Shown piece by piece: positions 7,713-64,000 of a stretch of DNA of 64,000 bases. The DNA lies in the NCBI GenBank assembly GCA_049602735.1, contig JBMYRW010000002.1, positions 3,760-67,759 on the forward strand, given 5' to 3'. The translations under genes were made by a program, and so were the position numbers. The stretch's first letter is position 1; each line of letters begins with the position of its first letter. The notes under the pieces are model-generated. The model had not been told where the DNA came from and did no database searches. It saw only the letters and a program-made list of their open reading frames with translations. The DNA comes from Thermoplasmatota archaeon (GTDB taxonomy: Archaea > Thermoplasmatota > E2 > JACPAO01 > JAHFTW01).

Positions 7713-7952
7713 TGCTTCCCGTTGTCGCCTCATGCGACAGGAAGCGAACCACATGACACCCGATGAAGCCCTCCAGAACATGCACGCCCTCGCCTGGACC
7801 CCCGTCAGCAGCCGTGTGCTGAGCGCGCGGCCGACGAAGGCGTGACCACGCGCACAGTTCGGTGAAACCGAACACGCGTCGGCCTTTGCCACGAGCATCA
7901 AACCCCTCAGCGCGTTCTTCGCTTTGCCCACCAAGTGGGCGGAGACAACAAC

Positions 7953-8360: not shown

Positions 8361-8369
8361 GGGAGGGAC

Positions 8370-8903: not shown

Positions 8904-8930
8904 GATAATTCGGGCCTTTCCCTTCTCCTT

Positions 8931-12532: not shown

Positions 12533-12742
12533 ATGGACGTGGTTCAGATCCCCGGAGGCTACGAAGTCCGCGGCGACACCTACCTGGTCAAGGACATCCT
12601 GAAGAAGCACGGCGCTCGATGGAACGGCATGGCCGGCGCGTGGACCTTCGACGATGAAGCAGCCGCCCACGCCGCGGCCAAGGTCGCCAGCACGGAGCTC
12701 GCGTACCGGAAGGAACTGGAAGCCCTCGAAGCGATGGCGTAG
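12533..12742 (+). CDS. Small hypothetical protein (69 aa)
   Basis: Protein-like composition (MDVVQIPGGYEVRGDTYLVKDILKKHGARWNG...). The upstream part of ORF 12383..12742 is R/P-rich and overlaps the SDR gene, so the internal ATG was taken. Confidence 0.4.
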   Translation: MDVVQIPGGYEVRGDTYLVKDILKKHGARWNGMAGAWTFDDEAAAHAAAKVASTELAYRKELEALEAMA

Positions 12743-12794
12743 GCGTCACGGCCAACGCCACAAGCACCAAGTGGCCAAAGAGGACCTCAGGTCC

Positions 12795-39599: not shown

Positions 39600-39606
39600 G
39601 TCTTAG

Positions 39607-41580: not shown

Positions 41581-42873
41581 CTAAACGATTGCAGCCATCC
41601 GATGCAAATGCCGTCTCGCCATCACCGGCACTTCATACCACCCAACGGAAACCCCCCGCTCCTCCACTTCGACCAAGGCCTCAGAAGTCGAAGCCCCACA
41701 CGTCGGACACCGCCACCCGGCGTCGGCCCCGGCACTCTTCATCCGATCCCCACACGCACAGGTCGGGTTGGCCACTTTCACCTTGGACTCCGCCAGGGAA
41801 ACGACACGCAGTTTCTCCAGATGCACGGTGGCATCCCGCAACGCCCCGACCACTTCGACGGCATCGCCAGGCCGCAATGCGCGCACCACGTCGCGGAATT
41901 TCTTGGTGGGCTCGAACGCCGCCGCCTGGAACGCCCTACCAACAGGATCCTCCAGATCGACCAGGACATGCCCGCCACTCCGGGTCCTCGGCATCCCGGC
42001 CACGGTTGCCGCGAGGTGGACGGTCCCCAGTTCTGGCGCTTCGGCGAGTGCTTCCACGGGGGTGACGTGGTCGCCGCTGGCCTGGTTGGTGGCCCAGAGG
42101 AGCCAGCCGTCGATGGGTTCCCGGGCGGCGGCGCCGAGGGCGCGTACGCCCCAGTCCCGCAGCTTCTCCGGGTCGCGGCCGCGTAGCCCCAGGAGGACGG
42201 GGCACGGCGTGGCGGGAACGCAGGCGAGGCGTCCCTCTTCGGGGTCGGTGGTGTGGAACGTGATGCCGGCGCGGTCCAGGCCCTGCAGGGGCCCCGGTTC
42301 GACGGCGCGGGGTTTGCCCCATTGGGGCGGTTGACGGTAGGCGATCAGTTCGTAGCTGCTCGGGGGGCCCGGCCAGGCGGCCGCTGCGGCGCAACCGACA
42401 AGCGCCCGGTCGTCGCCCCGCGTTTGGAGGAGGGCGCCGCTGGCTTCCAGGTCGGCGCGGGCCTGCGGGGGGTCGACGACGGTGCGCACGGCGGCCCAGT
42501 AGGCCCACGGGAGGGGCAGCGGGCGGGGCAGCAGCGCGACGGCGGGGTTGGCGTCCCCTTGGGCGACGTTGTCGAGGGCGTTCCAGACGGCCTCCAACCG
42601 TTCCGGCGTCGGTTCGGCGGGGCGCCCTTCTGGGAAGGCGAGAATCTCGCGGCCTTGCAGTTCGCCGATGCGGGTCTGGGCCCCTTCCGGGTGGCCCAGC
42701 GGCACGGCGACGGCGGCGTTGCCGCGGGTCTTCCACGGGACGTTGGGGTTCAGACGCACCAGGCGCGGCAGGGCCAGCGGCGCCAGGTCGGGCAGGGCGA
42801 GGAGCGCGTGGAAGAGGGCGTGGGTGGTGCAGCCGCCGCCTGGGCCGTCCGTGTCGTCGAAGGCGAGGAGCAC
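41581..42873 (-). CDS. tiaS: tRNA(Ile2) 2-agmatinylcytidine synthetase TiaS
   Basis: N-terminal 'LLAFDDTDGPGGGCTTHA' matches the TiaS TCKD signature (DDTDS..GMCTTY). C-terminal Zn-ribbon CxxC...CxxC. Archaea-specific enzyme. Confidence 0.85.
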   Translation of the reverse strand: MLLAFDDTDGPGGGCTTHALFHALLALPDLAPLALPRLVRLNPNVPWKTRGNAAVAVPLGHPEGAQTRIGELQGREILAFPEGRPAEPTPERLEAVWNALDNVAQGDANPAVALLPRPLPLPWAYWAAVRTVVDPPQARADLEASGALLQTRGDDRALVGCAAAAAWPGPPSSYELIAYRQPPQWGKPRAVEPGPLQGLDRAGITFHTTDPEEGRLACVPATPCPVLLGLRGRDPEKLRDWGVRALGAAAREPIDGWLLWATNQASGDHVTPVEALAEAPELGTVHLAATVAGMPRTRSGGHVLVDLEDPVGRAFQAAAFEPTKKFRDVVRALRPGDAVEVVGALRDATVHLEKLRVVSLAESKVKVANPTCACGDRMKSAGADAGWRCPTCGASTSEALVEVEERGVSVGWYEVPVMARRHLHRMAAIV

Positions 42874-50419: not shown

Positions 50420-51106
50420 ATGCGCTGCGTCGCCCTGCTCTCAGGAGGCAAGGACTCTGTGGCGGCCATCGACGTCGCCCGCGGCCACGGCTGGGAGGTC
50501 CCCGTCGCCCTGTGCATCGTGCCCGCCGAGGACGACGCATGGATGTTCCACACACCCAACCTGGCCGTCGTGGACGCCGTCGCCCAAGCCCTGGACCTGG
50601 AGTTGGTCCGCGCGCCGTGCCGATCGGGCCCTGAAGAAGAGGTGGCCGACCTGGAAACCGCGCTCGCCCAGGTCAAGGAAGAGCACGATGTGGGCGCGGT
50701 CGTCTCCGGCGCCTTGGCCAGCGAATACCAACGCACCCGCATCGACGCCATCGGCCACCGCCTCGGCCTTGCGACCTTCGCGCCCCTGTGGCATGTCGAC
50801 CCGGACACCTACATGGACGGACTCGTGGCGGCCGGCTACGACATCCGCATCGCCCGCGCCGCCGCCGACGGACTCGACGAGACCTGGGCCGGCCGCCGGC
50901 TCGATGCCCAGGCACTCGCAGAGCTGCGGGCGAACCCGAGCCGGCCCCACATCGCCGGCGAAGGCGGCGAGTTCGAGACGCTGGTGCTGGACGGACCAGG
51001 CTACCAGAAGAGGATCGAAGTGGAAGAAGAAGAGGTGGAGGCGACCGCCAGCCGCTCCACGTGGCACGTCAAGCGGTGGCGGCTGTCTGCCGTCAGACGA
51101 TGTTGA
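50420..51106 (+). CDS. dph6: Diphthine-ammonia ligase (Dph6/MJ0570-like PP-loop ATPase)
   Basis: PP-loop 'ALLSGGKDS', and 'EGGEFETLVLDGP' C-terminal motif. GAGGA lies 5 nt before the ATG. Confidence 0.75.
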   Translation: MRCVALLSGGKDSVAAIDVARGHGWEVPVALCIVPAEDDAWMFHTPNLAVVDAVAQALDLELVRAPCRSGPEEEVADLETALAQVKEEHDVGAVVSGALASEYQRTRIDAIGHRLGLATFAPLWHVDPDTYMDGLVAAGYDIRIARAAADGLDETWAGRRLDAQALAELRANPSRPHIAGEGGEFETLVLDGPGYQKRIEVEEEEVEATASRSTWHVKRWRLSAVRRC

Positions 51107-52664
51107 TGGAGTAGACGTCGCTGTCGATCCCTTGGTTGCCTTCGAAGCTCACGGAGCCGCTGGCGCGGTACTTGCCGGCCAGCAGGGGAATCTCGGTGGG
51201 GACCTCAGCGACGCTCGGGAACACCTGCCAACAGCGGTTCAAGAACAGACGCGGCACCTCGAACTCGGCTTCGCCCAGGGCATCGGTCTGCTCGACGCTG
51301 CGCCAGCTGCGGCACGGCGTGTTCTCCAAGACGATGTTGACGGCGCCCGTGTTGCTCTGGTAGTCGACGTTCATGACGACATCCGCGTCCTCAATGGGGG
51401 TGCCGCTGAGGTACCGGACGTCCACGTCGATGACCGGCTGGCCGTAGAAGCGGTAGTAGCGCTGCGTCGCCTGGACGCGCACGTCCAGCTCATCCGTCAT
51501 GTCCACGCAGACGTCGTCGGTCGCCGTGAGGCCTTGACTGTCGTAGACGGTCAGCTCCAGGCATTGGGTGGCCAGGTCCGTGAACGAGCCGGTGTACGTG
51601 TCGGTCGTGCCGACGATGAGCCCCTCGTGGCGCCATTCATAGCTCGTGATGCCGCCGTCCTCCGGGTCGCTGCTGCCGCTGCCGTCGAAGGTCACGGATT
51701 CGCCGAGGTTGGCGAGCGTGTGGCTGGCGGAAGCCACCGCCGTGGGGGGCGTGTTGGCGTTGGGATCACTCGTACCGGCCTCGCAGCCACCCTCTGGGAC
51801 CGCTTCCAACACCATGTTGTCGAAGAACACAATGGAGTCGTACCACACGTCGTAGCGTTCATACAGGGAGAGCGTGAGCGTCTGGGGCACGCCGGGCTCG
51901 ACGGGGGTCTGGGCACGCAGGATCGGCGTGGCGTACCGGATGTGCTCGGGCGGCTGGTACCCGTACTCACCGTCCCTCCACGCCTGCTGGTTGCCCCAAG
52001 GCATGCCGGCCGTGGAGCCCAGCGCAGCAAAGCCGGTGGCATACTCGGAGATGGGATTGCCGTCGCCATCGACGGCGAAGTTGCCGGGCGCGTTCGTGCC
52101 TCCGAACTCCTCGAAGGAAAGCGGAGCCGGCCCCATTTGGGCGACGAAACCGTCCTCGAACCAGCGGCCATCAACGCCCTTGCGCCCGGGTTCTTCCTGG
52201 GTCACGAACTGGAAATCGAAGCGCAGGCAGTTGATGCCTGGCGCAGGCGTGAAATCGAAGGCGAGACGCGTCATGTCCTTGTCATCGACGGTCTCGTCAC
52301 CCTGCGTGGTGCCTCTGTACGAGCCGAGGAGCGACGGGAGCAGGATGTTCCCTAGCCCCCCGGTCGTCAACCAAGCAAAGCCCTCGCCGTGCAGGGGGAA
52401 CTCGCTGTACGGTCGCTCCGGGACGGCCGTCCCGTGCCCGTACCCCTGATAGCTCACGACGGCCGTCACCGAATCCAACGTCGTTGGATCGGCCGGCACG
52501 TGCTCCAACATGGAAGCCAGCGATGAGTCTCCGGACTGGAACGACGCTTGACCCAGCGGCGCCAAGGCAGCGGTCAGGAAAAGGACGGTGAGCGCCAAGG
52601 GCACGGCGCGGGCTCGAGCTTCCATGCTGGCCGCAGGCGACGTTTCTTTATTAACTAGGTACAA
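51093..52664 (-). CDS. Secreted protein with an N-terminal beta-sandwich (choice-of-anchor-like?) domain, a PKD domain and a C-terminal beta domain (paralog 1)
   Basis: Signal peptide. PKD signature 'VTFDGSGSSDPEDGGITSYEWRHEG'. About 70% identical over long stretches to 52721..54205. Confidence 0.8.
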   Translation of the reverse strand: MYLVNKETSPAASMEARARAVPLALTVLFLTAALAPLGQASFQSGDSSLASMLEHVPADPTTLDSVTAVVSYQGYGHGTAVPERPYSEFPLHGEGFAWLTTGGLGNILLPSLLGSYRGTTQGDETVDDKDMTRLAFDFTPAPGINCLRFDFQFVTQEEPGRKGVDGRWFEDGFVAQMGPAPLSFEEFGGTNAPGNFAVDGDGNPISEYATGFAALGSTAGMPWGNQQAWRDGEYGYQPPEHIRYATPILRAQTPVEPGVPQTLTLSLYERYDVWYDSIVFFDNMVLEAVPEGGCEAGTSDPNANTPPTAVASASHTLANLGESVTFDGSGSSDPEDGGITSYEWRHEGLIVGTTDTYTGSFTDLATQCLELTVYDSQGLTATDDVCVDMTDELDVRVQATQRYYRFYGQPVIDVDVRYLSGTPIEDADVVMNVDYQSNTGAVNIVLENTPCRSWRSVEQTDALGEAEFEVPRLFLNRCWQVFPSVAEVPTEIPLLAGKYRASGSVSFEGNQGIDSDVYSINIV

Positions 52665-52720: not shown

Positions 52721-54205
52721 TTACAAGAGGGCGATGCCGTACCGGTCCGAGTCAGAGCCGCCGTTGCCGTCCTTGGCGACCGAGCCGACGGCGCGGTAGT
52801 CGCCGCCCGCGACCGGGAGCTGCGTCGGGACCTCGACGAGGCCGGGCAAGGCACCGAGGCAGCGCTCGACGACGAAGAACGGCACGTCGAACGAGGCGCG
52901 GCCGTTGCTGGCGGTGGTGCCGGAGGCGGACCAGTCGGGGCAAGGGGTCTGGCCGAGGATGCTGTTGACGGGCCCGATGTCGTTCGTGTAGGAGACGCTC
53001 AGGCCGACGGTGCCGCCGACCACGGGTTCACCGCTCTGGTAGAGCGCCTGCACGTGCACGCGCGGCTGCTGGTAGAACGCGTAGCTGTTGCGGCTGGCCC
53101 AGACGTCCACTTGCAGTTCGTCCGTGAGGTCCACGCAGACGGAGTCGACGCCGGTGGCTCCGAGGCTGTCGAAGACGGTGAGCTCCAGGCATTCCGTCGC
53201 CAGGTCGGCAAAGGAAGTGGCGTAGGTGGCCGCCGTGGAGACCAGGTTGCCGCCGTGGCGCCATTCATACGCAGAGACCGCGCCGTCCTCGGGGTCGCTG
53301 CTGGCGGTGCCGTCGAAGGTCACCGTCTCACCGAGGTTGGCCAGGGCATGGCTCGCCTGGGCCACGGCGGTCGGGGGTTCGTTGACGGCGATGACGCCAG
53401 GGTCGCAGCCCTCGGGGCCGGCGGCGCCGACGAACAGGTTGTCGATGAAGACCGTCGAGTCGTAGATGCTGTCGCCCTGGTCGAAGATCGACAGGAACAG
53501 GGTGTGGGCGCCCGGTCCCACGGGCGTCTGGGCACGCAGCAGGGCGCTGGCACCGTCATAGGAGGTGCCGGCGGCGTTGGCGGCGTTCATGGACGCGGCA
53601 CCGGCGGCGTTGATGCTGATCACGTCACCGTTCTCATCGAAGGCGAAGTTGTCCGGCGCCATGATGTCGCTGCCCATGGTCGTCCAGGTGGTGTCGTCCA
53701 GTTCGGCGATGAAGGCGTCATTGTAGTCCGTGCCCACCCATTCCGGGTATTCCTCCGAGAGGAAGCGGAAGTCGAAGCCGAGGCAGTCGCCGCCGACGGG
53801 CGTCGTGAAGCTGATGGCCAGGACGGTGACGTCCCAGTCCGTGTCGCCGCGGGCGTTGCCGCCGCCGAGTCCCACGCCGTCGCTGCCGGTGGTGCCGGTG
53901 GTGGCGAGCGCGGGGTCGCCGGTGGTCAAGATCGTGTACGTGTCGCCATCGACGGGGAAGCCGGCCAGGGGTTCGTCGCTGGTGGCATGGGGCATGCCGG
54001 ACGGCGGTAGCTCCAGGAACGTCGCGGCGGTCACGAGACCCAGTTGGGCCTCCATGGCGGCCACCAGGGCGTCAGGGTCAGCGGTCGGCGTCATGGCACC
54101 GTGGCCGGCAGGGGCCAACGCCAGGACGAGGGCGAGCGTCACGGAAACGGTCAGGGCGCGCCTCATGAGAATCAATCCACGCCGCTCGAAGTGGCGTCGA
54201 TTCAT
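52721..54205 (-). CDS. Secreted protein with an N-terminal beta-sandwich domain, a PKD domain and a C-terminal beta domain (paralog 2, tandem duplicate)
   Basis: Signal peptide. PKD signature 'VTFDGTASSDPEDGAVSAYEWRHGG'. Collinear similarity to paralog 1. Confidence 0.8.
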   Translation of the reverse strand: MNRRHFERRGLILMRRALTVSVTLALVLALAPAGHGAMTPTADPDALVAAMEAQLGLVTAATFLELPPSGMPHATSDEPLAGFPVDGDTYTILTTGDPALATTGTTGSDGVGLGGGNARGDTDWDVTVLAISFTTPVGGDCLGFDFRFLSEEYPEWVGTDYNDAFIAELDDTTWTTMGSDIMAPDNFAFDENGDVISINAAGAASMNAANAAGTSYDGASALLRAQTPVGPGAHTLFLSIFDQGDSIYDSTVFIDNLFVGAAGPEGCDPGVIAVNEPPTAVAQASHALANLGETVTFDGTASSDPEDGAVSAYEWRHGGNLVSTAATYATSFADLATECLELTVFDSLGATGVDSVCVDLTDELQVDVWASRNSYAFYQQPRVHVQALYQSGEPVVGGTVGLSVSYTNDIGPVNSILGQTPCPDWSASGTTASNGRASFDVPFFVVERCLGALPGLVEVPTQLPVAGGDYRAVGSVAKDGNGGSDSDRYGIALL

Positions 54206-54829: not shown

Positions 54830-54854
54830 CCCTTGGCTCTACATACACTAGAGG

Positions 54855-57800
54855 TTGGTCTCGATGGCTGGAACATCCCTCCCCCTGCTCGCACGTCCCA
54901 AGACGCTCATTTCGCTGGTCCTGGTCCTTCTGATGGTGGCTCCCGCCTCCATCATCGGCGCCGTGAGCGCCCAAGAAGCGCCCGCCCCGGTCGAACCGAC
55001 GATCTCGGAGCTGCCCGACGCCGAACGCGAGGCGTTCGTCGACCTGTATCTCGACGTGTTCGTGAGGGGGGTCGTCCCCCTCAACGACACGCCCGGCGTG
55101 TACCCCGACTACACCGGCGAGCTACAACAAGAGCTCGCGGACGAGGTCCTGGAAGGCATGCGTGCCGACCCGACCTTCGCGCCCAACCTTGACCCCGTCA
55201 ACGCCGGCCCCGCGCTCGGCTTCTCCACCCCCGAAGACCCTCTGATCGACCGCGAGACCGGTGAACCCGTCACCCAGGACCGCGTCGACGACCTCTACCG
55301 CGCCTTCCTGCTCGGCCTCGTCTTCAACCGCGAGGTGTTCATCGACAACATCCAAGCGGTCGCCGAGGACACCATGTCCCCCGAGGACGCCGAGGCCCCC
55401 CCGGCCGACCCGGCCGGCACCAGTGAACAGGAGAACCCCATCCGCCGCGAGTTCTACGAAGAACCGCTGAAGCACTGGGGCAACACCGACCCCAACGCCA
55501 CCCAGCCGCCCTCCTTCGAAGGACTCGGCCCCGTGCTGCTCGAACAGCCCGGCATCCCCGAGGGCGTCACCTACAGCACCAACGTGGACGTCCCCGCGGC
55601 GCTCCGCGACCTCACGCCTGCCCAGGGACCAGCCACCCTGCCCATGGCGATGCCCACCGACCTCGTCCAGACCGTCGAACCCCCGCAGCTCACCGACCCC
55701 GAGCTGCTGGCCGAACCGTCCGACCTCGCCGCCGCCCTCCCGACCAGCCCCCTGGGCGCGGTGCCCGTGGACGCCTGGGACGACCCCAACTTCCAACTCC
55801 GTCTGCCCCCGCTCCTTGAGTTCCTGCGTGACCTTGCCAACCTCGCCACGCACGAGCTCTTCGAACTGATGGGCATCCTCGTCGACGACGCGGCCATCCC
55901 GGCCAAGATCAGCGGCAACCTGCAGCAGGTGGCCCCTGAGGTCTACGAGCACATCCTCGACCTCGATGTCACGGCGGCCGAGTTCGCCGGCAAGCTGGAG
56001 TCCCTCCTGCGCCCGGCCACCATCGTCGCCGACACCAATGCCCTGCCCGAAGACCTGGAAGCGCTGGTCGCCTCCCTCCTCGAACGGGCCAATGAACTGC
56101 AGTACGCCGGCACCGTCAACGGCGTCGACTTCGAAGGCACCTGGGGCATCCCGGAAGCCATCGACATCGACAGCGACGGCCTGGCCGACCTGCTCGTCCA
56201 GCTCACCCTCAGCCCGGCGGTCGTGCCCATCGAGGACGGCCTGCTGGAGATGCGCCCCCACCTCATCGTGGAGCGCACCAACGGCGTGTGGGCCCTCGAT
56301 GCCCTCGACGACCTGCCGGCCCTCCCGGGCGCACCCTTCCCGGTGCCCATGCCGGCCTCGACGCAATTGGCCGGCGCCCCGCTCACCGGCGAGCAGCTGC
56401 TCGTGGCCGGTGTGGCCACCAGCGTCCCCGCGCCTCTGCAACCGTTCCTCCCCAGCGGCAGTGCCTTCCCGTACGACATGACGGTGGCCTTCCCGCTGGC
56501 CGACACGGACGCCGTGGCGGTCTTCGACGCCCACTTCCCCGGCGGCGCTGACCACTTCGAAGCGATCCTCGAGGACCTTGGGCCCTCCGTGCAGATCGCC
56601 ACGACCGGGTCCCCGGGCGCCTTCGAGTTCCTGGCTTCCATCCTGCACGAGGGTGCCCCCGGTGGCGACACGTCCACCCTGTCCCTCGCCGGTGACCAGG
56701 CCCCCGAACTGCTGGGCGCTGCGGCCGCCATCAACGCCGCCGCCGGCACCAGCATGCTCGACCTGACGCCCCTGCTGCCCATGGACCTGGAGGTCGGGCT
56801 GCTGCGCGACGGCCCTGCCGGTCGCCTCGCCCTGGCCGCCAGCAGCCAAGAGATGCCCCCCACGACCATCGTGAACGAGGGCGCCGACCTCGCCATCGAG
56901 ACCGTCGAAGGGGCCAACCTCGCCATCGCGCGCCAGGACTTCCTCTCTGACGACACCTTCGACCACGCGGGCCTTGTCCTTGGCAACGCCGCTGCCCAGA
57001 TCGACGCCACGCTCACCGAAGCCGGCTTCGACATCGGCCTCGACGAACGCGGCGCCGACGTGCACGCCATCGCGGGCCTGGTCGACGACGGTGACTACGA
57101 GCACGCCACCTGGGCGTTCATCGAGAACGCCGGGTACGGCATCGCCATCGACACCTCCGCCGGTGGCCTCACCTTTGACAGTGACAGCCACGTGGACGAC
57201 CTGCGTGCCGTGCGCGCCAAGACGGCCGCTGCGGCCCTCATGGGCACCGTGAGCGGCTTCAAGGTCACCGACGAGCTGACCGCCTTCGGCATGCCCGGCG
57301 CCCAAGAAGCCAGCGTCGTCCCCCAGGACGGCGGCTTCGACATCCAGAGCCTCACCGACCGCGACGTGCCCTTCCTGCTGGACATCGAACAGACCACGGC
57401 CCGCGGCCTGGAGGCGGAGCGCTTCAGCTTCTCCAACCTGCCCGGCTCCCTGGCGGTGGATGTCCGCGACGGTAGCATCAACGTCGGTGGCAACTCCCCG
57501 ATCGACCTGGTGACCGGCCAGCTGTCCCGTCCCCTCGACGGCGCCGGCATGGACCCCACCAAGGGCTTCGTCGTCCTCGATGACCTCAACGGCCAGGCCT
57601 CCGTGGCCATGGACGAAGCCAACGTGAACGTCCAGGCCAGCGGCGACCTCGCCTCCGGTAACGTGCTCGCCTCCAACGTCATCGACGGCGTGGGCGACCC
57701 GCAGTTCATCGCCATCCCCGGCAACCACATGCTGGCCGACGTGGTCGGCACCGCCCGCCAGTACTCGGCCCAGGTGACCGGCATGGCCAGCCTCGGCGAA

Positions 57801-60800
57801 GGGCTGGGCGGCCTGATCAGCGGCCTCGCGGGCGGCCTGGGCGGCATCGCCCTGGAGTTGGCCCTCGACGGCCCCCTCTGCTGGAGCTTCGGTAAGGACG
57901 GCAACAAGCTGGAGATGTGTGTCAGCAACGTCCCGGACCGCCTCGAGATCGACCTGAACCTGGTGCCCAACCCGTCGCTGACCTACAGCGCCAGCGAAGA
58001 GATCGACGAGATCACCATCAACCTGCAGGCGCCCCAGGTGGACATCCTGTTCTTCGTGCACGGCCTCCCCGAGACCGTCACGATGGAGTTCACGCGCGCC
58101 GGCATGGACCTCATCATGAGCGACCGCATCGACGCCATCGGCATGATCGCGGAGCTCGCCGACACGACGATTACCGCCATCGCCGAATCGATCCCCTCCG
58201 AGCTCCACTTCGGTTGGGACAACGGCGGCATGGACCCCGGCATCCCCGCCGGTGACGCCATCGGCCGCGTCTACGCCGCTGTGAGCCGCCCCGGCTTCAG
58301 CTTCTTCGTGGACATCGAGCACCTGCCCCCTGTCCAGTTCGCTTGGAGTGACGGCAGCCTCGACCTGGACATGAGCGGCGACAAGATCGGCTCCATCGAG
58401 ATGCAGCTGCTGCTCAACCCCGCCGGCAACCCCGCCGGACGCCTGCAGCTGCTCGCCTTGGCAGAGGAGATCCCCGGCGTCCACGCCAACTGGGACCCCT
58501 TGGGCGGCGAGTTCGGCACCGACGGCAGCCTCGGCGGCATCACGCTCAAGATCGTGCTCGGCCCCACGGCAGCGCCCTCGTTGACCATGATCTTCGAGAT
58601 CCTCGATGTGCCCCAGATCGATGGGGCCTCCTGGGAGGACGGCCGTTTCGACCTGCCCCTGGTGGGTGGTCGCATCGGCAGCGTCACCTTCCAGTTCATC
58701 GCCGGAGACATGGACCTGTTCCTGCAGGCGCTCGGTGTGCCTGGCCTCTCGGCCCAATGGGACGACGCAGGCGGTTCCTTGTCTTCGGACGGGCCTCTTG
58801 ACAAGATCACGGCGTACTTTGCCAAGGGCACCAGCGCCCCGAGTATGAGCATCTTCTTCGAGATCGAGGACGTGCCTCAGCTCAACGGCATCACCTGGGG
58901 CGACGGCATCGACATGGACTTCTCGGGCGGTCGCATCGGTCGTATCGCGTTCCAGTTCGTCAGTGACCAGCTCTTCGACTCGGATGACATCGTGTTCTTC
59001 CTGGAAGCGTTGGGTCTGCCCGGGTTCAACATCGACATGAATGCCAAGACGGTGAGCACGACGGGCGTCCTGGACAGTCTGCTCATCTTCCTGCGCCGCG
59101 GTCCTGCACTTGATCCGACCCTGTTCGCCAGCCTGGAACTGGAGGGCGTGCCGGCCATCAACGCGGGCGCGTGGGACGAAGGCCTTGGCCTCGGGTTCAG
59201 CCCCGTCGATGCCCGCATCGACCGCATCAACTTCCTGTTCCTGAGCAACCCCGCCGGCACCGCCAGCGACCTCCTGTTGGACGTCACGGCGCTCGGTCTT
59301 CCTGGTATCTCTTTGGACACGACGACCGGCACGATCAGCACGACCAACGTGCTGGACCTGATCTCCCTGGACTTCCGCCTCGGCGACCTGCTGGACCCCA
59401 CGCTCCTGATGCTCTTCGAGCTGGAGGGCGTGCCCAAGATCGTGGCGGGTCTGTACGGCGAGGACGAGTTCAGTCTTGGCTTCTCGCCGGCCTCGGACAC
59501 CATCGACCGCCTGGAGCTCCTGTTCCAGGTGCGCACGCCGTCCACGCCCATCGAGAACGAACTGCAGATCCACCTGCTGGCCCACGGCCTGCCCGGCATC
59601 GTGCTCGGCTTCGAGGACCGCGCCGGCACCATCGGCACCAGCGCCACGTTGGACGACCTGCTGCTGCACTTCCACTTTGGTCCCCGCGGCACGCCGCTCA
59701 TCGAGACCAACCTGCTGCTGGACACGGTGCCTCAGATCACCGCCGGCGGTTGGACCGATGGCAGCTTCGACCTCGACCTGGCCGGCCGCATCGACCAGAT
59801 CCTCCTGGAGTTCATCCTGAACCCTGACGGCCTGGACGCGGTGCCCACGGATGCCAACGACCTGTACCTGATCCTCAACGCCGAAGGCGTGCCCGGCATC
59901 GACGTCGGCTTCGTCAACGGCGGCGGCACGATCGGCACCGACGACACCCTGGACCTCATCGACCTGCGGGCCATCCTTGGCCCCCGCAGCGGCCTCACGC
60001 TCACCGGCGAAGGCCTGAGCCTGCAGCTGACCATCGAAGGTGTTCCCGCCGTCACCGGCAGCTGGGACGACGAAGGCTTCGACCTGGGCCTCGCCGGCCG
60101 CATCGATGAGATCCTCCTGGAGTTCATCGTCGACCAGGCTGGCAGCGCCACGGACCTGTTCCTGCGCGCCTTCGCCCAAGGCATCCCCGGCATCGACCTG
60201 GGCTTCACCGACGGCGGCGGCACGATAGGCACCACCGGCACCTTGGACCTCCTGGACGTGCGCGCCATCCTGGGTGCCCGCAGCGGCCTGAACCTGGCCG
60301 GCACCGGCCTGTTCGCACGCCTGACGGCCACCAGCGTCCCCATGATCACCGCCGGTGCCTGGGATGACGCCAGCATGAACCTGGACCTGTCCGGCAAGAT
60401 CGGCGGTCTCACGCTGGAGTTCTTCGTCAACGAGGCGCTCAACGCCAACGACATCTACCTCCTGCTGGACGCCTCCGGCATCCCGACGCTGTCCTTCGCC
60501 AAGAGCGACACGGGCTTCGGTCTGGAGACGCCCGACGGGCTCGATTACGTCTCCCTGATCTTCCGCAAGGGTGTCTTCAACTACGACCCCCACGCGTACG
60601 GCCCCACCTTCGTGGGCGCCTGGATCCGCCCCGACGGTGTCGGCACCTCCTGGCCTGGCAACCCGCAGTTCGCGGTGTCGGCCAAGGTCAGCGGCATCAA
60701 GGAAGTGGTCTGGAGCACCAACGACGCCACGGAATCCCAGTCGCTGGACCTCGAGTTCACCGGCCTGCGGGACATCCGGGCCATCGTCGACCTGGAGACG

Positions 60801-62621
60801 GCGGCGTTCCTCGCCGAAGCCGACCTGAGCCTGACGAACCTGCCCGCAGACGTCTCGCTGGACATCACGCCCGACGTGGTGGGCTTCGCGAGCGCCAACG
60901 GCTGCGTCGGCTTCTCCTGCCTGGCCAAGACCCCTTGGCTACAAGGTAAGGTCAACGTGGGCACCCGTGGCGCCGCCAACGCCATGCCGGAGCCGTTCTG
61001 GCCCTGGCAGACCGTCAGCGAGCCGGGCTCCTTGTGCCCCCGCAACGCCGGCTTCGGGACCTACAACTCGCCCTGTGGCATCATGGGCAACACGTTCATC
61101 GACGTGCAGGACGGCGGCTTCGCGTCCAAGTGGAAGCTCGACCTGCCGCTGCCGGACGCCATCTCGTTCACCAAGAGCGCCGGTGACGGTGTGCCGACGT
61201 ACAGCCTGAACACGGGCTCCGTCAAGGTGGGCAAGCTGGACATCCGTGTCAACACGGAACTGCCCCTGCCCATCTACCCCCACGAGCTCAACCTCATGGC
61301 GGTGGCGACCGTGAGCAACCTGCCCACGAGCCTCTCGGTGGTGCAGGGCATGGGCAACGCGGCCGAAGGTGGCAAGCCGACGATCAACGTCAACACGGGT
61401 CAGCCCATCGACAAGATCTTCGTCGGCCTCCGTCTCGATGGCTCCTGGTACCATGACCCTGGACTCATCACCGTGAGCAACTCCAACATCAACGACAACG
61501 GGTTCCCGATCTGGCTGATGGTGGAGGATGTGCCCACGACGGTGAGCCTGTCCACCGGCAAGTCCAGCTACCAGACGTCCAACTGTCAGAGCTGCAACCC
61601 GCCGGTGCCGTTCATCAACTACAACGCGGCCAGCAACACGCTGGACGCCATGGTGTACACCAACATCGGCGACCTGTGGGGTCTCATCTCCCGCGCGGCC
61701 ATCGACCTCGCCGGCGATGTGATCCCGGACTGGCTCGAGGGCCTGGCCAACTACGACAGCCAGGGCCACCTGCTCATCCAGGCGGTCGACATCCCGTCCG
61801 ACGGCATCGCCCTCTTCAAGTCGGGCAACTCGTTCCACGTGGATGCCAGCCCCATCCTGAACCAGCGCCTCACGAAGTTCTTCGTGGACTTCCAGCTCAA
61901 GTTCAGCGACGGTGACGGCCGGCCCAGCTCCTGCATCATCTGCCTGGGCATCGCCGACCTGAAGTACTACTGGCACTACAGTTGGTGGTTCGGCATCGAG
62001 ACCCTGAGCCTCCTGTTGGAGGACCTGGGCAGCGTCGGCATCGACCCGGGCATCGAGAGCATCGTCAACATTGACGGGCGGTTGGTGTTCCACTTCCGTG
62101 CCGGTGCCGGCTTCGACTTCGGTGCCGGTCTGGAGTTCTACGTGGCCGGCATCCGGTTCTTGTGCGTCTGCATCGAGAGTCCGACGATCAGCTTGATCCT
62201 CGATCCAGGCTTCATCTCGTTCGAGGTGTTGTCCTGGAGTTGTTGTCAGTTCGATTACTTCTGGATCGGTTCACCGTTCCATGGAACAGGCTACTATTGG
62301 GCGCCAAGAGGTCACTTCTGTCTCTGTGACTGGCACTGGTACGCCAAGCTCGGCGGCACCTACCCCGGCAACTGGGGTTTCGACCTGCCCATCGCGATCC
62401 CACCGATCGTTCCGTTCCGCGGTCTGGATATCGCGTACGGAACGCATCACGTGTTCATGAATCCAAGACTGCTGCTCTGTGCGGGCGGTGATTGGCGTGA
62501 ACCAGAAGTGGTCTGCGTCTCCTTGGGACGACTGTACCCGACCGAGTTCATCGTGGTCTACGCGATGCTGCGTTACTTCAGCATCAGCATCTCCACGGGG
62601 AGCGAGCACCACCACCATTAG
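54855..62621 (+). CDS. Giant secreted cell-surface protein (2588 aa): signal peptide, ~1050-aa acidic N-terminal region, at least 8 tandem ~95-aa repeats, and a ~240-aa aromatic/Cys-rich C-terminal module ending in HHHH
   Basis: Uninterrupted ORF with protein-like, acidic composition throughout. Signal peptide LISLVLVLLMVAPASIIGAVSAQEAP. The opposite-strand 1823-aa ORF is antisense-type. A GGAGG Shine-Dalgarno for the next gene overlaps the stop. Confidence 0.9.
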   Translation: MVSMAGTSLPLLARPKTLISLVLVLLMVAPASIIGAVSAQEAPAPVEPTISELPDAEREAFVDLYLDVFVRGVVPLNDTPGVYPDYTGELQQELADEVLEGMRADPTFAPNLDPVNAGPALGFSTPEDPLIDRETGEPVTQDRVDDLYRAFLLGLVFNREVFIDNIQAVAEDTMSPEDAEAPPADPAGTSEQENPIRREFYEEPLKHWGNTDPNATQPPSFEGLGPVLLEQPGIPEGVTYSTNVDVPAALRDLTPAQGPATLPMAMPTDLVQTVEPPQLTDPELLAEPSDLAAALPTSPLGAVPVDAWDDPNFQLRLPPLLEFLRDLANLATHELFELMGILVDDAAIPAKISGNLQQVAPEVYEHILDLDVTAAEFAGKLESLLRPATIVADTNALPEDLEALVASLLERANELQYAGTVNGVDFEGTWGIPEAIDIDSDGLADLLVQLTLSPAVVPIEDGLLEMRPHLIVERTNGVWALDALDDLPALPGAPFPVPMPASTQLAGAPLTGEQLLVAGVATSVPAPLQPFLPSGSAFPYDMTVAFPLADTDAVAVFDAHFPGGADHFEAILEDLGPSVQIATTGSPGAFEFLASILHEGAPGGDTSTLSLAGDQAPELLGAAAAINAAAGTSMLDLTPLLPMDLEVGLLRDGPAGRLALAASSQEMPPTTIVNEGADLAIETVEGANLAIARQDFLSDDTFDHAGLVLGNAAAQIDATLTEAGFDIGLDERGADVHAIAGLVDDGDYEHATWAFIENAGYGIAIDTSAGGLTFDSDSHVDDLRAVRAKTAAAALMGTVSGFKVTDELTAFGMPGAQEASVVPQDGGFDIQSLTDRDVPFLLDIEQTTARGLEAERFSFSNLPGSLAVDVRDGSINVGGNSPIDLVTGQLSRPLDGAGMDPTKGFVVLDDLNGQASVAMDEANVNVQASGDLASGNVLASNVIDGVGDPQFIAIPGNHMLADVVGTARQYSAQVTGMASLGEGLGGLISGLAGGLGGIALELALDGPLCWSFGKDGNKLEMCVSNVPDRLEIDLNLVPNPSLTYSASEEIDEITINLQAPQVDILFFVHGLPETVTMEFTRAGMDLIMSDRIDAIGMIAELADTTITAIAESIPSELHFGWDNGGMDPGIPAGDAIGRVYAAVSRPGFSFFVDIEHLPPVQFAWSDGSLDLDMSGDKIGSIEMQLLLNPAGNPAGRLQLLALAEEIPGVHANWDPLGGEFGTDGSLGGITLKIVLGPTAAPSLTMIFEILDVPQIDGASWEDGRFDLPLVGGRIGSVTFQFIAGDMDLFLQALGVPGLSAQWDDAGGSLSSDGPLDKITAYFAKGTSAPSMSIFFEIEDVPQLNGITWGDGIDMDFSGGRIGRIAFQFVSDQLFDSDDIVFFLEALGLPGFNIDMNAKTVSTTGVLDSLLIFLRRGPALDPTLFASLELEGVPAINAGAWDEGLGLGFSPVDARIDRINFLFLSNPAGTASDLLLDVTALGLPGISLDTTTGTISTTNVLDLISLDFRLGDLLDPTLLMLFELEGVPKIVAGLYGEDEFSLGFSPASDTIDRLELLFQVRTPSTPIENELQIHLLAHGLPGIVLGFEDRAGTIGTSATLDDLLLHFHFGPRGTPLIETNLLLDTVPQITAGGWTDGSFDLDLAGRIDQILLEFILNPDGLDAVPTDANDLYLILNAEGVPGIDVGFVNGGGTIGTDDTLDLIDLRAILGPRSGLTLTGEGLSLQLTIEGVPAVTGSWDDEGFDLGLAGRIDEILLEFIVDQAGSATDLFLRAFAQGIPGIDLGFTDGGGTIGTTGTLDLLDVRAILGARSGLNLAGTGLFARLTATSVPMITAGAWDDASMNLDLSGKIGGLTLEFFVNEALNANDIYLLLDASGIPTLSFAKSDTGFGLETPDGLDYVSLIFRKGVFNYDPHAYGPTFVGAWIRPDGVGTSWPGNPQFAVSAKVSGIKEVVWSTNDATESQSLDLEFTGLRDIRAIVDLETAAFLAEADLSLTNLPADVSLDITPDVVGFASANGCVGFSCLAKTPWLQGKVNVGTRGAANAMPEPFWPWQTVSEPGSLCPRNAGFGTYNSPCGIMGNTFIDVQDGGFASKWKLDLPLPDAISFTKSAGDGVPTYSLNTGSVKVGKLDIRVNTELPLPIYPHELNLMAVATVSNLPTSLSVVQGMGNAAEGGKPTINVNTGQPIDKIFVGLRLDGSWYHDPGLITVSNSNINDNGFPIWLMVEDVPTTVSLSTGKSSYQTSNCQSCNPPVPFINYNAASNTLDAMVYTNIGDLWGLISRAAIDLAGDVIPDWLEGLANYDSQGHLLIQAVDIPSDGIALFKSGNSFHVDASPILNQRLTKFFVDFQLKFSDGDGRPSSCIICLGIADLKYYWHYSWWFGIETLSLLLEDLGSVGIDPGIESIVNIDGRLVFHFRAGAGFDFGAGLEFYVAGIRFLCVCIESPTISLILDPGFISFEVLSWSCCQFDYFWIGSPFHGTGYYWAPRGHFCLCDWHWYAKLGGTYPGNWGFDLPIAIPPIVPFRGLDIAYGTHHVFMNPRLLLCAGGDWREPEVVCVSLGRLYPTEFIVVYAMLRYFSISISTGSEHHHH
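58090..60600 (+). repeat. In-frame coding tandem repeats (period ~280-300 nt, i.e. ~93-100 aa; 8 clear plus ~2 degenerate units) within the giant gene
   Basis: Recurring units of the form 'hLxALG(V/L/I)PG(I/L)..(W)DD.GG.(I/L)..DG.LD.I.L.F..G.........(F/L)E(I/L)(E/D)(G)VP.I.(A)G.W.DG.FDL.L.GRI(D/G).I.(F/L)(Q/E)F'. The (V/L/I)PG anchor recurs near 58735, 59015, 59300, 59590, 59890, 60185 and 60480. Confidence 0.75.
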
Positions 62622-62625
62622 GAGG
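62621..62625 (+). promoter_or_regulatory. Shine-Dalgarno-like GGAGG, 8 nt upstream of the ATG at 62634
   Basis: 'cattaGGAGGaaccaacgATG' read directly from the sequence. Confidence 0.5.
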
Positions 62626-62633
62626 AACCAACG

Positions 62634-64000
62634 ATGACCCACGACAAACTCAACAAGAAGACCCCGCAGACGATCGCCGCCCTCGCCATGGCCTTCGCCC
62701 TGGTGATGGCGCCTGGGCTGGCCAGCGGCGCGCCCCTGGCCGGCGTACCCGGCGTGTTCGAGGTCGGCACGATCGATGCCCCCGGCGAATCAGGTGATTC
62801 AGGGGGGACAAGCAGCGAAACGGGGCCCTTCAACTCGGAGAGCTCGTCCGATTCGACCACGTGCATCATCCCCTGGTTCAGTGGCTGTCTCTTCGAGTTC
62901 ACGGAGCACGAAGAGGAGCAGCACGACCACTACGATTCGGAGTCCACGTACTTCGAGTGGGCGACCAACGACACGCGCAACGGCTACTATGTCAGCGTGC
63001 TCGACGGCGTCTTCTGGACCCGTGTCGCCAGCGGTGACTACGAGCACGAGGAGTCCTCCGGCGCTGACGCCGAGGGCAGCCACTACGACCGGGAGTACTA
63101 CGGCAACAACCTGGGCTTCTCCACGGAGAGCATCGAGGAGAGCGACTACTTCCTGGACAACGACTACGCCAGCTACGAGTCTGTCTCTCAGACGACGGCT
63201 GACGCCGGCTTCGATGCGGGCGCTGCTGGCGCCAGCGTCGGCCTGGACCGCCAACAGAACGGCCAGGAAGGCTCGTCCACGTCTGAGGAGTCCAACAGCT
63301 CCGAGCGCGAGGAGTTCAACCTGTTCGGCATCCCGATCCATGAATCGGGTGCTTCGGAGAGCCACAGCCTGGAGGAGGAGTACCAGCGCTACTGGAACGA
63401 GACGAGCCTCCAGTCGACCATCTTCATCGTCAACCCGGTGGACAACACCACGGTCAACATCGTGGGCCTGAGCCTGTCCAAGGGTGACGAAGAGGAGTCC
63501 GGCAGCTCCCAGGGCAGCGACTCGTCGTCGTCCTACACGGACGTGCTGGGCTTCAACGTCGTCGGCCAGGAAGACGAGTCGGACCACGATTCGTCCTTCT
63601 ACCGCTACAACGAGTGGCTGGACCTGACGGTGGACGTCATCGACGGCACCCTTCAGGGCAGCGTGCTCTACGAGCATGGCAACGAGGAGTCGGAGAGCTT
63701 CGAGCACGAGCGCAGCGTCACGGAAGTGGTCGGCCTGCCGTTTGGCAGCGAATCCACGGAGGACCAGGAATCGAGTTCCTCCTGGCGCCGTGCCACGATC
63801 GCCATCGACGCTGCTGAGGATGCTGGCTCCGTCGTGGTCTCCCATTGGAACGAAGATTCCGAGAGCGAGAGTCAGACGGAGGACGACACGATCGTCATCA
63901 TCCCGATCGGCAGCACGGGCGAGGAGGAATCCGAGCACCACTCCGACGGCTACGGCTTCGGCATCGAGCTGGGCGACGGCGAGGTGCTGTGGCTCACCGG
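62634..64000 (+). CDS. Secreted, extremely acidic Ser/Glu/Asp-rich protein (N-terminal 455 aa only; runs off the right window edge)
   Basis: Manual translation. Signal peptide MTHDKLNKKTPQTIAALAMAFALVMAPGLASGAP, then an S/E/D/Y-rich sequence with no stops to the window end. Not in the ORF track because there is no in-window stop. The listed ORFs 62776..63471(+) and 62799..63941(-) have spurious composition. Confidence 0.8.
   Translation, partial: MTHDKLNKKTPQTIAALAMAFALVMAPGLASGAPLAGVPGVFEVGTIDAPGESGDSGGTSSETGPFNSESSSDSTTCIIPWFSGCLFEFTEHEEEQHDHYDSESTYFEWATNDTRNGYYVSVLDGVFWTRVASGDYEHEESSGADAEGSHYDREYYGNNLGFSTESIEESDYFLDNDYASYESVSQTTADAGFDAGAAGASVGLDRQQNGQEGSSTSEESNSSEREEFNLFGIPIHESGASESHSLEEEYQRYWNETSLQSTIFIVNPVDNTTVNIVGLSLSKGDEEESGSSQGSDSSSSYTDVLGFNVVGQEDESDHDSSFYRYNEWLDLTVDVIDGTLQGSVLYEHGNEESESFEHERSVTEVVGLPFGSESTEDQESSSSWRRATIAIDAAEDAGSVVVSHWNEDSESESQTEDDTIVIIPIGSTGEEESEHHSDGYGFGIELGDGEVLWLT

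Follow-up and report, generated by a model that had tools for sequence, protein, structure and literature searches.

A giant, predicted secreted repeat protein of Thermoplasmatota and its downstream partner are candidate components of a cell-surface system

A Thermoplasmatota genome carries, within the 64,000-nucleotide stretch of DNA analyzed here (the window), one giant gene whose product contains repeats of unfamiliar sequence. What is such a protein built from, and what might it do for the cell? To our knowledge, the cell envelopes of Thermoplasmatota that have yet to be cultured are almost wholly uncharacterized. A first-pass annotation had described the product as a secreted protein with tandem repeats of a new domain, and we followed up its claims with profile searches, structure prediction, and comparison of homologous loci.

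RESULTS

The reading frame and its start site

A single frame on the plus strand runs from 54855 to 62621 without interruption, 2588 codons when counted from a TTG, just as the first-pass annotation had reported. Its GC content by codon position (0.656/0.444/0.902) marks a coding frame and matches the pattern of other genes of the window. The NCBI annotation of a Thermoplasmatota MAG includes the same protein (P0001; 100% identity) and starts it at ATG 54864, which gives 2585 aa. We favor ATG 54864 because a Shine-Dalgarno-like AGAGGT overlaps the TTG at 54855 and because this choice agrees with the NCBI annotation, and we conclude that it is likely the start codon.

54850 to 54855, plus strand: Shine-Dalgarno-like AGAGGT, read from the sequence, 9 nt upstream of ATG 54864
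54864 to 62621, plus strand: giant protein gene, 2585 aa from the ATG (2588 codons from TTG 54855), stop codon TAG at 62619-62621
55122 to 60593, minus strand: antisense ORF of 1823 aa, GC by codon position 0.909/0.441/0.691, considered a non-gene

GC-rich genomes generate long spurious ORFs, and one does lie on the opposite strand here; its codon-position GC mirrors that of the sense frame, and we therefore regard it as a shadow of the GC-rich coding frame. The giant frame itself might likewise be a GC-rich open frame, or an assembly chimera, that encodes no protein. Its GC3 of 0.90, however, comes with the codon-position pattern of neighboring genes in the window. Moreover, full-length homologues with 36 to 61% identity occur in independent assemblies, with architecture and neighboring gene kept, and an identical protein is present in an independent Logan assembly. 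We conclude that an artefact has next to no chance of being the explanation, since conservation of this kind in effect refutes it. The window gave no matches in Rfam and tRNA scans.

Export signal and composition

The giant protein begins with MAGTSLPLLARPKT-LISLVLVLLMVAPASIIGAV-SA/QEAP (the slash marks the predicted cleavage site), with n, h, and c regions arranged as in a Sec signal peptide. The call was made from the sequence pattern and a Kyte-Doolittle scan. A small-x-small (AxA-type) cleavage site is kept in the homologues P0002, P0003, P0006, and L008, and the sites seen in homologues are ASA/QD, ARA/DH, and AQS/EP. The signal peptide could instead be an uncleaved anchor, in which case the partner protein described below would be unneeded for tethering.

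54864 to 54971, plus strand: predicted Sec signal peptide of 36 aa, cleavage after VSA and before QEAP, called from the sequence pattern and a Kyte-Doolittle hydrophobic segment

Aspartate and glutamate make up 13.6% of the giant protein and lysine and arginine 4.3%, with a computed pI of about 4.05. Both the opening Sec signal peptide and the very acidic character claimed at first pass are thus upheld. Secreted-looking proteins of the window share a pI of ~4.05 and a K+R content of 3 to 5%, and most cytoplasmic ones have a pI of 4.7 to 6.2. Acidity due to a salt-in halophilic lifestyle was rejected, as the cytoplasmic proteins of the window are just mildly acidic. We conclude that the composition, judged against that of its neighbors, is of the extracellular type. 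All 18 cysteines fall in 9 close pairs.

N-glycosylation sequons are depleted in the giant protein (2 observed versus 10.3 +/- 3.0 in shuffles). Such depletion is unusual for an archaeal surface glycoprotein and counts against placement at the surface.

A repeat array of ~47-aa hairpin modules

Self-BLAST of the whole giant protein gave no off-diagonal matches, and the repeats surfaced only with fragment queries. Fragment BLAST and iterated HMM searches found 10 in-frame repeat stretches at aa 1060 to 1909. Seven of these are full units (periods of 89 to 100 aa; individual E-values of 1e-25 to 1e-31), flanked by a half unit on the C-terminal side and some 1.5 degenerate units on the N-terminal side. 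The earlier count of at least 8 units is therefore right for the total of stretches and slightly too high for full units, and the consensus motif proposed with it agrees with the alignment consensus.

58029 to 60572, plus strand: run of 17-18 hairpin modules of ~47 aa each, at aa 1059-1906 in TTG numbering, located by a half-module HMM
58434 to 60443, plus strand: seven full ~95-aa doublet units, located by fragment BLAST and iterated HMM searches
58434-58700, 58701-58979, and 58980-59261, plus strand: units 1-3
59262-59552, 59553-59852, 59853-60146, and 60147-60443, plus strand: units 4-7

A unit of ~95 aa, as first described, is present but can be refined to a doublet of a ~47-aa module, since half A is homologous to half B (hhalign probability 94.6%, E = 7e-8). 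An HMM of the half module (45 positions) gave 17 matches with E-values of 2e-6 to 1e-19 and one further weak match. The units are acidic, with D/G-rich turns and the motif WDD.GG..DG.LD, and in the alignment consensus their strands carry an alternating hydrophobic face. At the protein level the units are 23 to 56% identical to one another, and Tandem Repeats Finder detected no DNA tandem repeat of ~285-bp period. We conclude from these identities that the repeat units are old and diverged.

Predicted structure of the repeat region

An AlphaFold model of units 5-7 with the C-terminal half unit had a mean pLDDT of 80.7 and a pTM of 0.73. The model was all-beta, with strands of 18 to 20 residues and a 6-residue turn at the junction of units 6 and 7, and a pTM of this value indicates that the three and a half units form one rigid body. 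Foldseek comparison of the model with the PDB and with viral models returned nothing significant.

The first-pass annotation had expected a beta-sandwich with Ca-binding loops, and on that view the giant protein could be a beads-on-a-string adhesin in which each ~95-aa unit is a discrete, self-folding, Ca-binding domain. Acidic units with D/G-rich turns suit such an adhesin, as do a varying unit number that recalls adhesin stalks and the retention of one full unit by short homologues (see below). AlphaFold, however, gave a continuous beta meander with long strands, 6-residue turns at unit junctions, and the pTM of a single body, and the elementary repeat is ~47 aa. In addition, the phase of a putative domain is ambiguous because repeat arrays open on a B half and close on an A half, and no Ig-like, cadherin, or RTX profile matched. 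We consider separate beads distinctly unlikely and conclude that the repeat region is predicted to be a continuous beta-meander rod rather than a series of separate domains.

Length variation among homologues

Unit number differs widely among relatives. There is one full unit in P0005 and P0006; 5 units are found in L009 and the L001 paralogue; 7 in the window protein, P0002, and L008; at least 8 in L012; and 27 in L007. Moreover, paralogues of 5, 7, and 27 units coexist in one MAG. L007, L008, L009, and L012 together supply roughly 80 unit sequences. Orthologous units are 40 to 60% identical and non-orthologous pairs 25 to 40%, except for the unit 6/7 pair (~50%), and units 6-27 of L007 are an expansion of the unit 6/7 type (40 to 71% identical). 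Because units have diverged and the DNA repeat is undetectable, each paralogue appears to be of stable length, so that differing rod lengths would be supplied by differing paralogues. In P0003, beta-gamma-crystallin/Inhibitor_I36 domains are inserted in unit loops, which argues that the loops are exposed and the setting extracellular.

The terminal regions

The regions on either side of the array match no known domain or PDB sequence in the searches indicated below.

54972 to 58028, plus strand: N-terminal ~1020 aa, comprising a conserved segment, Pro/acid-rich linkers, and then a beta-rich region, with no known domain
60582 to 62618, plus strand: C-terminal ~680 aa, beta-rich, the best-conserved part of the giant protein
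62607 to 62618, plus strand: natural C-terminal HHHH, of which H-x-H is conserved in homologues

The conserved N-terminal segment (aa ~100-200) is 60% identical to that of P0002, and about 450 non-beta, Pro/acid-rich residues separate the N-terminal hydrophobic segment from the beta region. The C-terminal ~680 aa are 49 to 70% identical to P0002, rising to 61 to 70% over the last ~490 aa, and contain 8 of the 9 close Cys pairs. This region had no sequence relative in the PDB, and an AlphaFold model of the C-terminal 725 aa (pLDDT 48) was set aside from fold searches. The terminal H-x-H is invariant in six aligned homologues, and H-x-H-type ends occur in five further loci, the endings across the family being HHHH, SHTH, SHRH, DHRH, YHDH, KHKH, and SHDHWF. 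A His-tag or cloning artefact was rejected as the source of HHHH, given that H-x-H is kept in natural homologues.

An undescribed and rare family

The whole giant protein had no Pfam and no NCBIfam matches, even at E<=10. Searched singly against Pfam, 19 units gave no meaningful match, only two chance ones to unrelated families (E = 0.25 to 0.28), and a unit profile found no matches among PDB sequences. Profiles of standard surface repeats were unmatched, namely, cadherin, PKD, Big_1/2/3, He_PIG, CARDB, fn3, Rib, G5, RTX HemolysinCabind, RHS/YD, and MORN. The earlier impression that the repeat matches no standard family, which a hit to cadherin, CARDB, Big_2, or He_PIG would have overturned, survives these searches. 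RTX and YD/Rhs readings were rejected for want of a profile match, the Rhs reading also because a closed Rhs-type shell is incompatible with 1 to 27 units. We conclude that the repeat module is undescribed, being new to Pfam, NCBIfam, and the PDB.

When 1.84 billion proteins were searched exhaustively with a profile, from whose alignment the L001 paralogue rows were left out, five true relatives only were found. A GTDB genome scan placed the family in four Thermoplasmatota MAGs only, and a JGI metagenome scan yielded no confirmed locus. MAGs with the family derive from sand and soil. The relatives are unannotated, and a literature search returned nothing on the family. P0007-P0009 were rejected as relatives; they are unrelated repeat proteins with Inhibitor_I78, G2F, and Big domains that share just the short motif GVP..IT...GR[IL]. 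The family is marked by a signal peptide, a conserved N-terminal segment, an array of A/B hairpin modules, a C-terminal region that is rich in Cys pairs and finishes in H-x-H, and a partner gene immediately downstream. The window protein shows every one of these features and shares them with P0002, P0003, P0005, P0006, L006-L009, and L012. We conclude that, across the databases searched, the family is extremely rare and specific to a Thermoplasmatota lineage.

The downstream partner gene

The partner gene follows the giant gene closely and is preceded by a purine-rich motif.

62621 to 62626, plus strand: GGAGGA, read from the sequence, overlapping the stop codon of the giant gene and 7 nt before the partner ATG
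62634 to 64000, plus strand: partner gene, which runs past the end of the window; the full protein of 923 aa is encoded at L005 16287-19058

The partner carries a signal peptide and a Ser/Asp/Glu-rich region of ~650 aa, followed by two hydrophobic segments (aa 687-763) and a C-terminal region of ~160 aa. Like the giant gene, it had no Pfam or NCBIfam match in the window, and the L003 partner is fused to Big_3_5/FG-GAP domains. A partner lies directly downstream, after a gap of 12 to 27 nt, in 9 of the 10 giant genes with readable downstream DNA. Counting against a two-gene system, one giant gene in L012 is followed by a second giant gene with no partner between. Over 28 cassette pairs, pairwise identities of giants and partners were correlated (r = 0.95; Spearman 0.80, p = 3e-7). 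We conclude from this correlation that the partner co-evolves with the giant protein.

A conserved cassette that pairs a large, acidic secreted protein with one anchored in the membrane would also be expected of an S-layer-type pair like SlaA/SlaB of the Sulfolobales, the giant protein providing a lattice-forming canopy and the partner a membrane stalk rather than the two making a protruding fibre. S-layer genes are typically lineage-restricted and fast-evolving, and so are the sequences here. On the other hand, one genome with several paralogous cassettes of very different rod length is a poor fit to one uniform lattice, neither gene resembles a known S-layer family, and archaeal S-layer proteins are usually heavily N-glycosylated, whereas sequons are depleted here. 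We rate a lattice as unlikely.

The neighborhood also bears on transport. The giant protein could be a covalently concatenated, LptA-like jellyroll whose continuous hydrophobic groove would ferry lipids or similar hydrophobic cargo away from the cytoplasmic membrane, toward an outer layer or membrane or into a neighboring cell, much as is done by the Lpt bridge, AsmA/TamB/YhdP, and VPS13-type proteins. Its giant size, its modular beta repeats, a hydrophobic segment at the N terminus, and strands with an alternating hydrophobic face are consistent with such a bridge. No OstA/LptA/LptC, AsmA, DUF490, or Chorein_N profile matched, however, and the LPD-3 structure 9cap_A compared with the repeat model at a Foldseek E of just 0.056 and a TM of 0.14. 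In known bridge proteins the groove begins at the membrane, whereas here an AxA site and the ~450 non-beta residues intervene between the hydrophobic N terminus and the beta region. A range of 1 to 27 units among one genome's paralogues is ill-suited to a fixed intermembrane gap, and globular crystallin domains sit inside P0003 units. Finally, no conserved ABC transporter or lipid-handling gene adjoins the cassette in any locus examined; the ABC genes at 42.5 to 44.8 kb of the window are 10 kb from it and absent from the other loci. We find a hydrophobic-cargo bridge very unlikely.

DISCUSSION

What, then, might the giant protein do? We propose, with about an even chance of being right, that it serves as the rod in a cell-surface system that is encoded by two genes and specific to one Thermoplasmatota clade. 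Sec would export the protein, with the signal peptide probably cut after VSA. The pLDDT-81 model and profile comparison suggest that the central part is a single unbroken ribbon, two layers thick, whose antiparallel beta strands are long and kinked. Its building blocks are ~47-aa hairpin modules, A and B types by turns. With the standard beta-strand spacing of ~4.8 A, each ~95-aa A+B unit should add four strands, or about 2 nm, and by the same geometry the array of the window protein would add roughly 15 to 17 nm and that of the 27-unit paralogue >50 nm. Unit number would thereby set rod length genetically, and the identity matrices show that arrays change in length when entire A+B units are duplicated close to their C-terminal end. 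The well-conserved C-terminal region, with its many Cys pairs and His residues and its invariant H-x-H, is the likely interaction end. The partner, probably translationally coupled, most likely tethers the rod to the membrane of the cell or serves as its base. Together, the two proteins may act as a spacer or fibre at the surface or as a scaffold of the envelope, with a defined reach and possibly adhesive, and the adhesin or S-layer-associated role first suggested for the giant protein is plausible. The family thus points to a specific pair of genes as candidates for a surface structure of one clade, and its natural variants of 1 to 27 units offer a length series for studying how a beta-ribbon rod is constructed and how its reach is used.

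The sole structural lead is a resemblance of the predicted repeat region to the LptA jellyroll. Like the predicted region, the OstA-like jellyrolls of LptA, LptH, LptC, and the LptD N-terminal domain, which form the LPS bridge in bacteria, place consecutive antiparallel strands head to tail in a long ribbon. The giant protein differs in having no sequence relationship and no significant Foldseek similarity to them, in joining its modules covalently in one chain with longer strands (18-20 aa) and highly variable length, and in having an archaeal host in which neither an Lpt ABC transporter nor an outer-membrane partner is encoded close by. We know of no bridge-type conduit of the Lpt/AsmA/VPS13 kind in archaea. 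It is highly improbable that the family is the archaeal counterpart, a single-chain jellyroll conduit tens of nanometers long that carries isoprenoid lipids or other hydrophobic cargo and has length paralogues for different gaps, but the resemblance makes archaeal bridge-type conduits a testable question.

Bridge-like lipid transfer proteins are giant and mostly beta, with repeated beta-meander modules whose number determines length and with an N-terminal hydrophobic segment (PMC11126948). The giant protein shares its size, beta-meander modules, and N-terminal hydrophobic segment with AsmA/TamB/YhdP/YdbH, VPS13, ATG2, and BLTP1. It differs from them in matching none of their profiles, in a long non-beta N-terminal region that is probably cleaved from the membrane segment, and in a family range of 1 to 27 units within one genome that is far wider. 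MORN arrays, OspA, and the CPAP/SAS-4 G-box are also elongated beta-hairpin sheets, but these consist of one layer and have repeats of 23 aa with short strands, whereas the strands predicted here have double the length, bend at a conserved G-x-P-G, and are lined with alternating hydrophobic residues on both arms, and no MORN profile matches.

Two surface systems are alike in other ways. The genes for SlaA and SlaB of the Sulfolobales are adjacent and co-oriented and encode, respectively, a large acidic protein that is secreted and a second protein anchored in the membrane, and the giant and partner genes share that arrangement and those predicted protein types. The present cassette differs in lacking sequence similarity and in being multi-copy with differing lengths. 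The Gram-positive "periscope" proteins, such as SasG and Rib, are secreted surface rods in which the number of tandem repeats sets length and varies among relatives. Periscope repeats have almost the same DNA sequence and rapidly gain or lose copies, whereas the units of the giant protein are diverged and leave no DNA repeat. What the giant family shares with the periscope proteins is a set of predicted rod-forming tandem repeats in differing copy number, here 1, 5, 7, at least 8, and 27.

The giant gene and its genomic setting

54855..62621, + strand: uninterrupted ORF for the giant protein, 2588 codons counted from TTG

The long uninterrupted ORF reported by the first-pass annotation was borne out, as its GC content at codon positions 1/2/3 (0.656/0.444/0.902) is coding-type and follows the same pattern as other genes of the window (68% GC). 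Moreover, an identical protein of 2585 aa, P0001, is present in the protein database under the title 'MAG: hypothetical protein ACPGQL_00970 [Thermoplasmatota archaeon]', begun three codons downstream at ATG 54864. The ATG is the better start, as AGAGGT lies 9 nt 5′ of it and overlaps TTG 54855. The antisense ORF of 1823 aa (55122..60593) was rejected as a shadow, since its codon-position GC of 0.909/0.441/0.691 mirrors that of the giant gene. We conclude that the giant gene is a genuine gene and consider the chance of an artefactual ORF with no real protein product to be negligible.

Other features of the window are as follows:

3635-7081, + strand: class II (B12-dependent) ribonucleotide reductase, 1148 aa, with a C-terminal TSCPD domain
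12654-14021, 22822-24183 and 24237-25805, + strand: acidic proteins (pI 4.05-4.7) with LVIVD or BNR/Asp-box repeats
37561-38745: AlkZ-like DNA glycosylase, adjoining the restriction-modification genes
38862-39599, - strand: XhoI-family restriction endonuclease
39607-41046, - strand: Eco57I/TaqI-like N6 DNA methylase, adjoining the endonuclease
41581-42873, - strand: TiaS (tRNA-Ile2 agmatidine synthetase) domains
51093-52664 and 52721-54205, - strand: two paralogous, very acidic, secreted-looking proteins directly upstream of the giant gene, both with a weak PKD domain and one called Choice_anch_L in its Logan record

TiaS is an archaeal marker and is consistent with the Thermoplasmatota assignment. 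The restriction-modification genes (38862-41046) are probably a horizontally acquired island, as GC content is 0.62 in the 38-42 kb stretch versus about 0.68 elsewhere. Candidate extracellular proteins are abundant in the window.

Export, acidity and the C-terminal end

The N terminus of the giant protein has a basic stretch and a hydrophobic core of 20 residues followed by VSA/QEAP, where the slash marks the putative cleavage point. Homologues have ASA/QD, ARA/DH or AQS/EP at that position. Both the layout and the recurring cleavage-type site support the Sec signal peptide that had been proposed, and the protein is likely exported and cleaved. The ORF is also very acidic, as claimed, with 13.6% D+E versus 4.3% K+R. 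Most cytoplasmic proteins of the window show mild acidity (pI 4.7-6.2), whereas every secreted-looking protein lies near pI 4.05, and therefore acidity marks extracellular proteins in this organism. The mild acidity of most cytoplasmic proteins also excludes a salt-in halophile as the cause.

All 18 cysteines fall into nine pairs spaced 1 to 13 residues apart, eight of which lie in the C-terminal region. The protein ends in HHHH (window 62607-62618), and because a terminal H-x-H is invariant throughout the family (HHHH, SHTH, SHRH, DHRH, YHDH, KHKH and SHDHWF), that ending is natural. Metal binding and sorting are examples of candidate roles for it.

The repeat unit is a doublet

Repeats were located by BLAST with 100-aa fragments and by iterated HMM searches. 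The first-pass annotation had counted at least 8 well-conserved tandem units of ~93-100 aa; ten in-frame repeat stretches were indeed found (aa 1060-1909), but only seven are full units (periods 89-100 aa, each E 1e-25 to 1e-31), flanked by a half unit on the C-terminal side and about 1.5 degenerate units on the N-terminal side. The alignment consensus, A.DL.L.L.A.G.PGI.......GG.I.T...LD.I......G....P.....L.I..VP.I....W....F.L....GRI..I...F, agrees with the motif proposed earlier. At the DNA level, no tandem repeat of that period was found.

Profile-to-profile comparison aligned the two halves of the unit, A and B, over 40 columns (probability 94.6%, E 7e-8), and a half-module HMM of 45 positions detected 18 consecutive modules from aa 1059 to 1906, 17 of them significant and one weak. 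By these comparisons, the ~95-aa unit is a doublet of a ~47-aa module. Units of the same rank in the window protein and in P0002, a database relative, share 40-60% identity. Non-orthologous pairs share 25-40%, with the exception of units 6 and 7, which share about 50%. Judged by these identities, the array is old.

The whole giant protein matched no Pfam/NCBIfam family even at E<=10, nineteen single units gave just two chance Pfam matches (E~0.25), and PDB sequence relatives were found for neither the unit profile, the C-terminal-region profile nor the N-terminal 1057 aa. Thus, as the first reading had suspected, the unit has no confident profile match to an established domain family in Pfam, NCBIfam or PDB. 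We conclude that, as far as sequence goes, this is a new family.

Relatives share one plan and a narrow distribution

When 5.8 billion clusters were searched by word index, the giant protein itself and P0002 (2586 aa, 52% identical) were the only matches. An exhaustive HMM search with the unit profile against 1.84 billion representatives returned eight proteins, five of which belong to the family:

P0001: the query protein itself
P0003: 3156 aa, Logan SRR33394504
P0004: 288-aa fragment
P0005: 1840 aa, annotated Candidatus Thermoplasmatota
P0006: 1864 aa, farmland soil

The remaining three, repeat proteins that carry Inhibitor_I78, G2F or Big domains, were rejected as unrelated. One of these, the eukaryotic P0007 (2281 aa), reached E 1e-8, yet only 37 of 95 profile positions were covered. 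Its Inhibitor_I78 repeats have a short motif in common with the B half (GVPQ.IT.D...GRLN..I), a likeness that is probably convergent.

Among 185,579 GTDB species genomes, the family occurs in four Thermoplasmatota MAGs only (three 'Mix_sand', one soil MAG), with up to three loci per genome; a JGI metagenome scan gave no confirmed locus. All members have a signal peptide, a conserved N-terminal segment, a beta-rich region, an A/B array that opens with a B half and closes with an A half, and a C-terminal region. The latter, about 680 aa, is the best-conserved part, with 49-70% identity to P0002 that reaches 61-70% in the final ~490 aa.

The array is predicted to be a continuous meander

AlphaFold was run on units 5-7 together with the half unit at the C-terminal end (346 aa in all), with an in-register alignment whose 11 rows are units taken from the window protein, P0002 and P0003-P0006. 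Mean pLDDT was 80.7 and pTM 0.73, and all five models had pLDDT between 75 and 81. The predicted structure is all-beta with four long strands of 18-20 residues per unit, and the sequence places kinks in these strands at the invariant G-x-P-G / V-P and at T...LD. Because a turn of six residues links the two long strands that meet where unit 6 passes into unit 7, the array is predicted, with moderate to good confidence, to be one continuous antiparallel meander and not beads on a string. The beta-sandwich units that had been expected did not appear in the model. A classical Ca-binding bead adhesin is accordingly improbable, as both the modelled meander and the ~47-aa elementary module count against it.

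Foldseek comparison of the model with PDB and with viral models yielded no match at E<=1e-3, and TM stayed below 0.25. Hydrophobic residues alternate along both arms of every long strand, which suggests a two-layer, V-shaped, LptA-like cross-section; that the array is an archaeal bridge-type conduit seems very improbable. With a standard beta-strand spacing of ~4.8 A and four strands per unit, each unit would add about 2 nm of length. The C-terminal 725 aa were modelled poorly (pLDDT 48) and were left out of all structural reading.

Array length varies by whole doublets

The array has one full unit in P0005 and P0006; five at locus L009 and in a paralogue at L001; seven in the window protein, P0002 and L008; at least eight at L012, where the ORF is cut; and 27 at L007 (2-12139, contig JBFJVP010000040.1; ORF of at least 4046 aa, N terminus cut off). 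A single MAG, Mix_sand19.2022.05.G.106, holds paralogues of 5, 7 and 27 units. Units 1-5 of L007 are of the old diverged type and units 6-27 (97-101 aa each, 40-71% identical) are copies of the unit 6/7 type. The array therefore grows by whole A+B doublets near its C-terminal end, which explains why the 95-aa period is the visible one.

P0003 carries insertions of beta-gamma-crystallin / Inhibitor_I36 / syncollin-like type at aa ~1310-1490 and ~2070-2700, placed within units (in the loop ahead of the GRI strand and between halves) as well as in loops of the C-terminal region. The unit loops that accept them must therefore be exposed.

Paralogues of several lengths count against an S-layer-type envelope pair. 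So does sequon depletion: the giant protein has two N-x-S/T sequons, both within its first 215 residues, versus 10.3 +/- 3.0 in composition-matched shuffles (window 54864-62618). We consider such a pair unlikely.

A partner gene travels with the giant gene

62634 to the window end, + strand: partner gene, cut by the window end, starting 12 nt past the giant stop

GGAGGA overlaps the giant stop codon ahead of the partner start. The full partner is 923 aa (16287-19058 of L005, a Logan assembly of the window organism) and comprises a signal peptide, about 650 aa rich in Ser/Asp/Glu and a 160-aa C-terminal region, with two hydrophobic segments in aa 687-763. Downstream DNA can be read for ten giant genes, and in nine of these (L001 twice, L002, L003, the P0003 contig, L006, L008, L009 and the window) a homologue (36-51% identity) follows at 12-27 nt. 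The lone exception was L012, where a second giant gene (2881-9759) follows the first (1-2544) with no partner between. Tandem cassettes are frequent (L001, L006, L008), and the L003 partner is fused to Big_3_5 / FG-GAP domains. The partner is confined to the MAGs that carry the giant family, and Pfam and PDB relatives of it were not found.

Identities of the giant C-terminal region and the partner were correlated over 28 cassette pairs (r = 0.95, Spearman 0.80, p = 3e-7), and the two resolve identical orthologue groups. The cassette was therefore inherited and duplicated as one unit. No other conserved neighbour genes were found across the loci compared; the upstream PKD-type acidic pair is not conserved beside the cassette in other genomes.

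The best-supported reading, to which we give about an even chance, is that giant protein and partner make up a two-gene rod system at the cell surface. The former would be exported and lose its signal peptide, and its modules would fold into an unbroken beta ribbon, with unit number setting the length. Its C-terminal region, conserved and rich in Cys and His, would be the interaction end, and the partner, probably co-translated and anchored via its hydrophobic segments, would hold or seed the rod at the membrane. Tethering by the partner, like the biological role, is putative.

Giant surface proteins built of repeats are an already known kind. This one stands apart by a module without a sequence family and a predicted architecture of rod rather than bead type; its partner gene is obligate, and its distribution among archaea is narrow.
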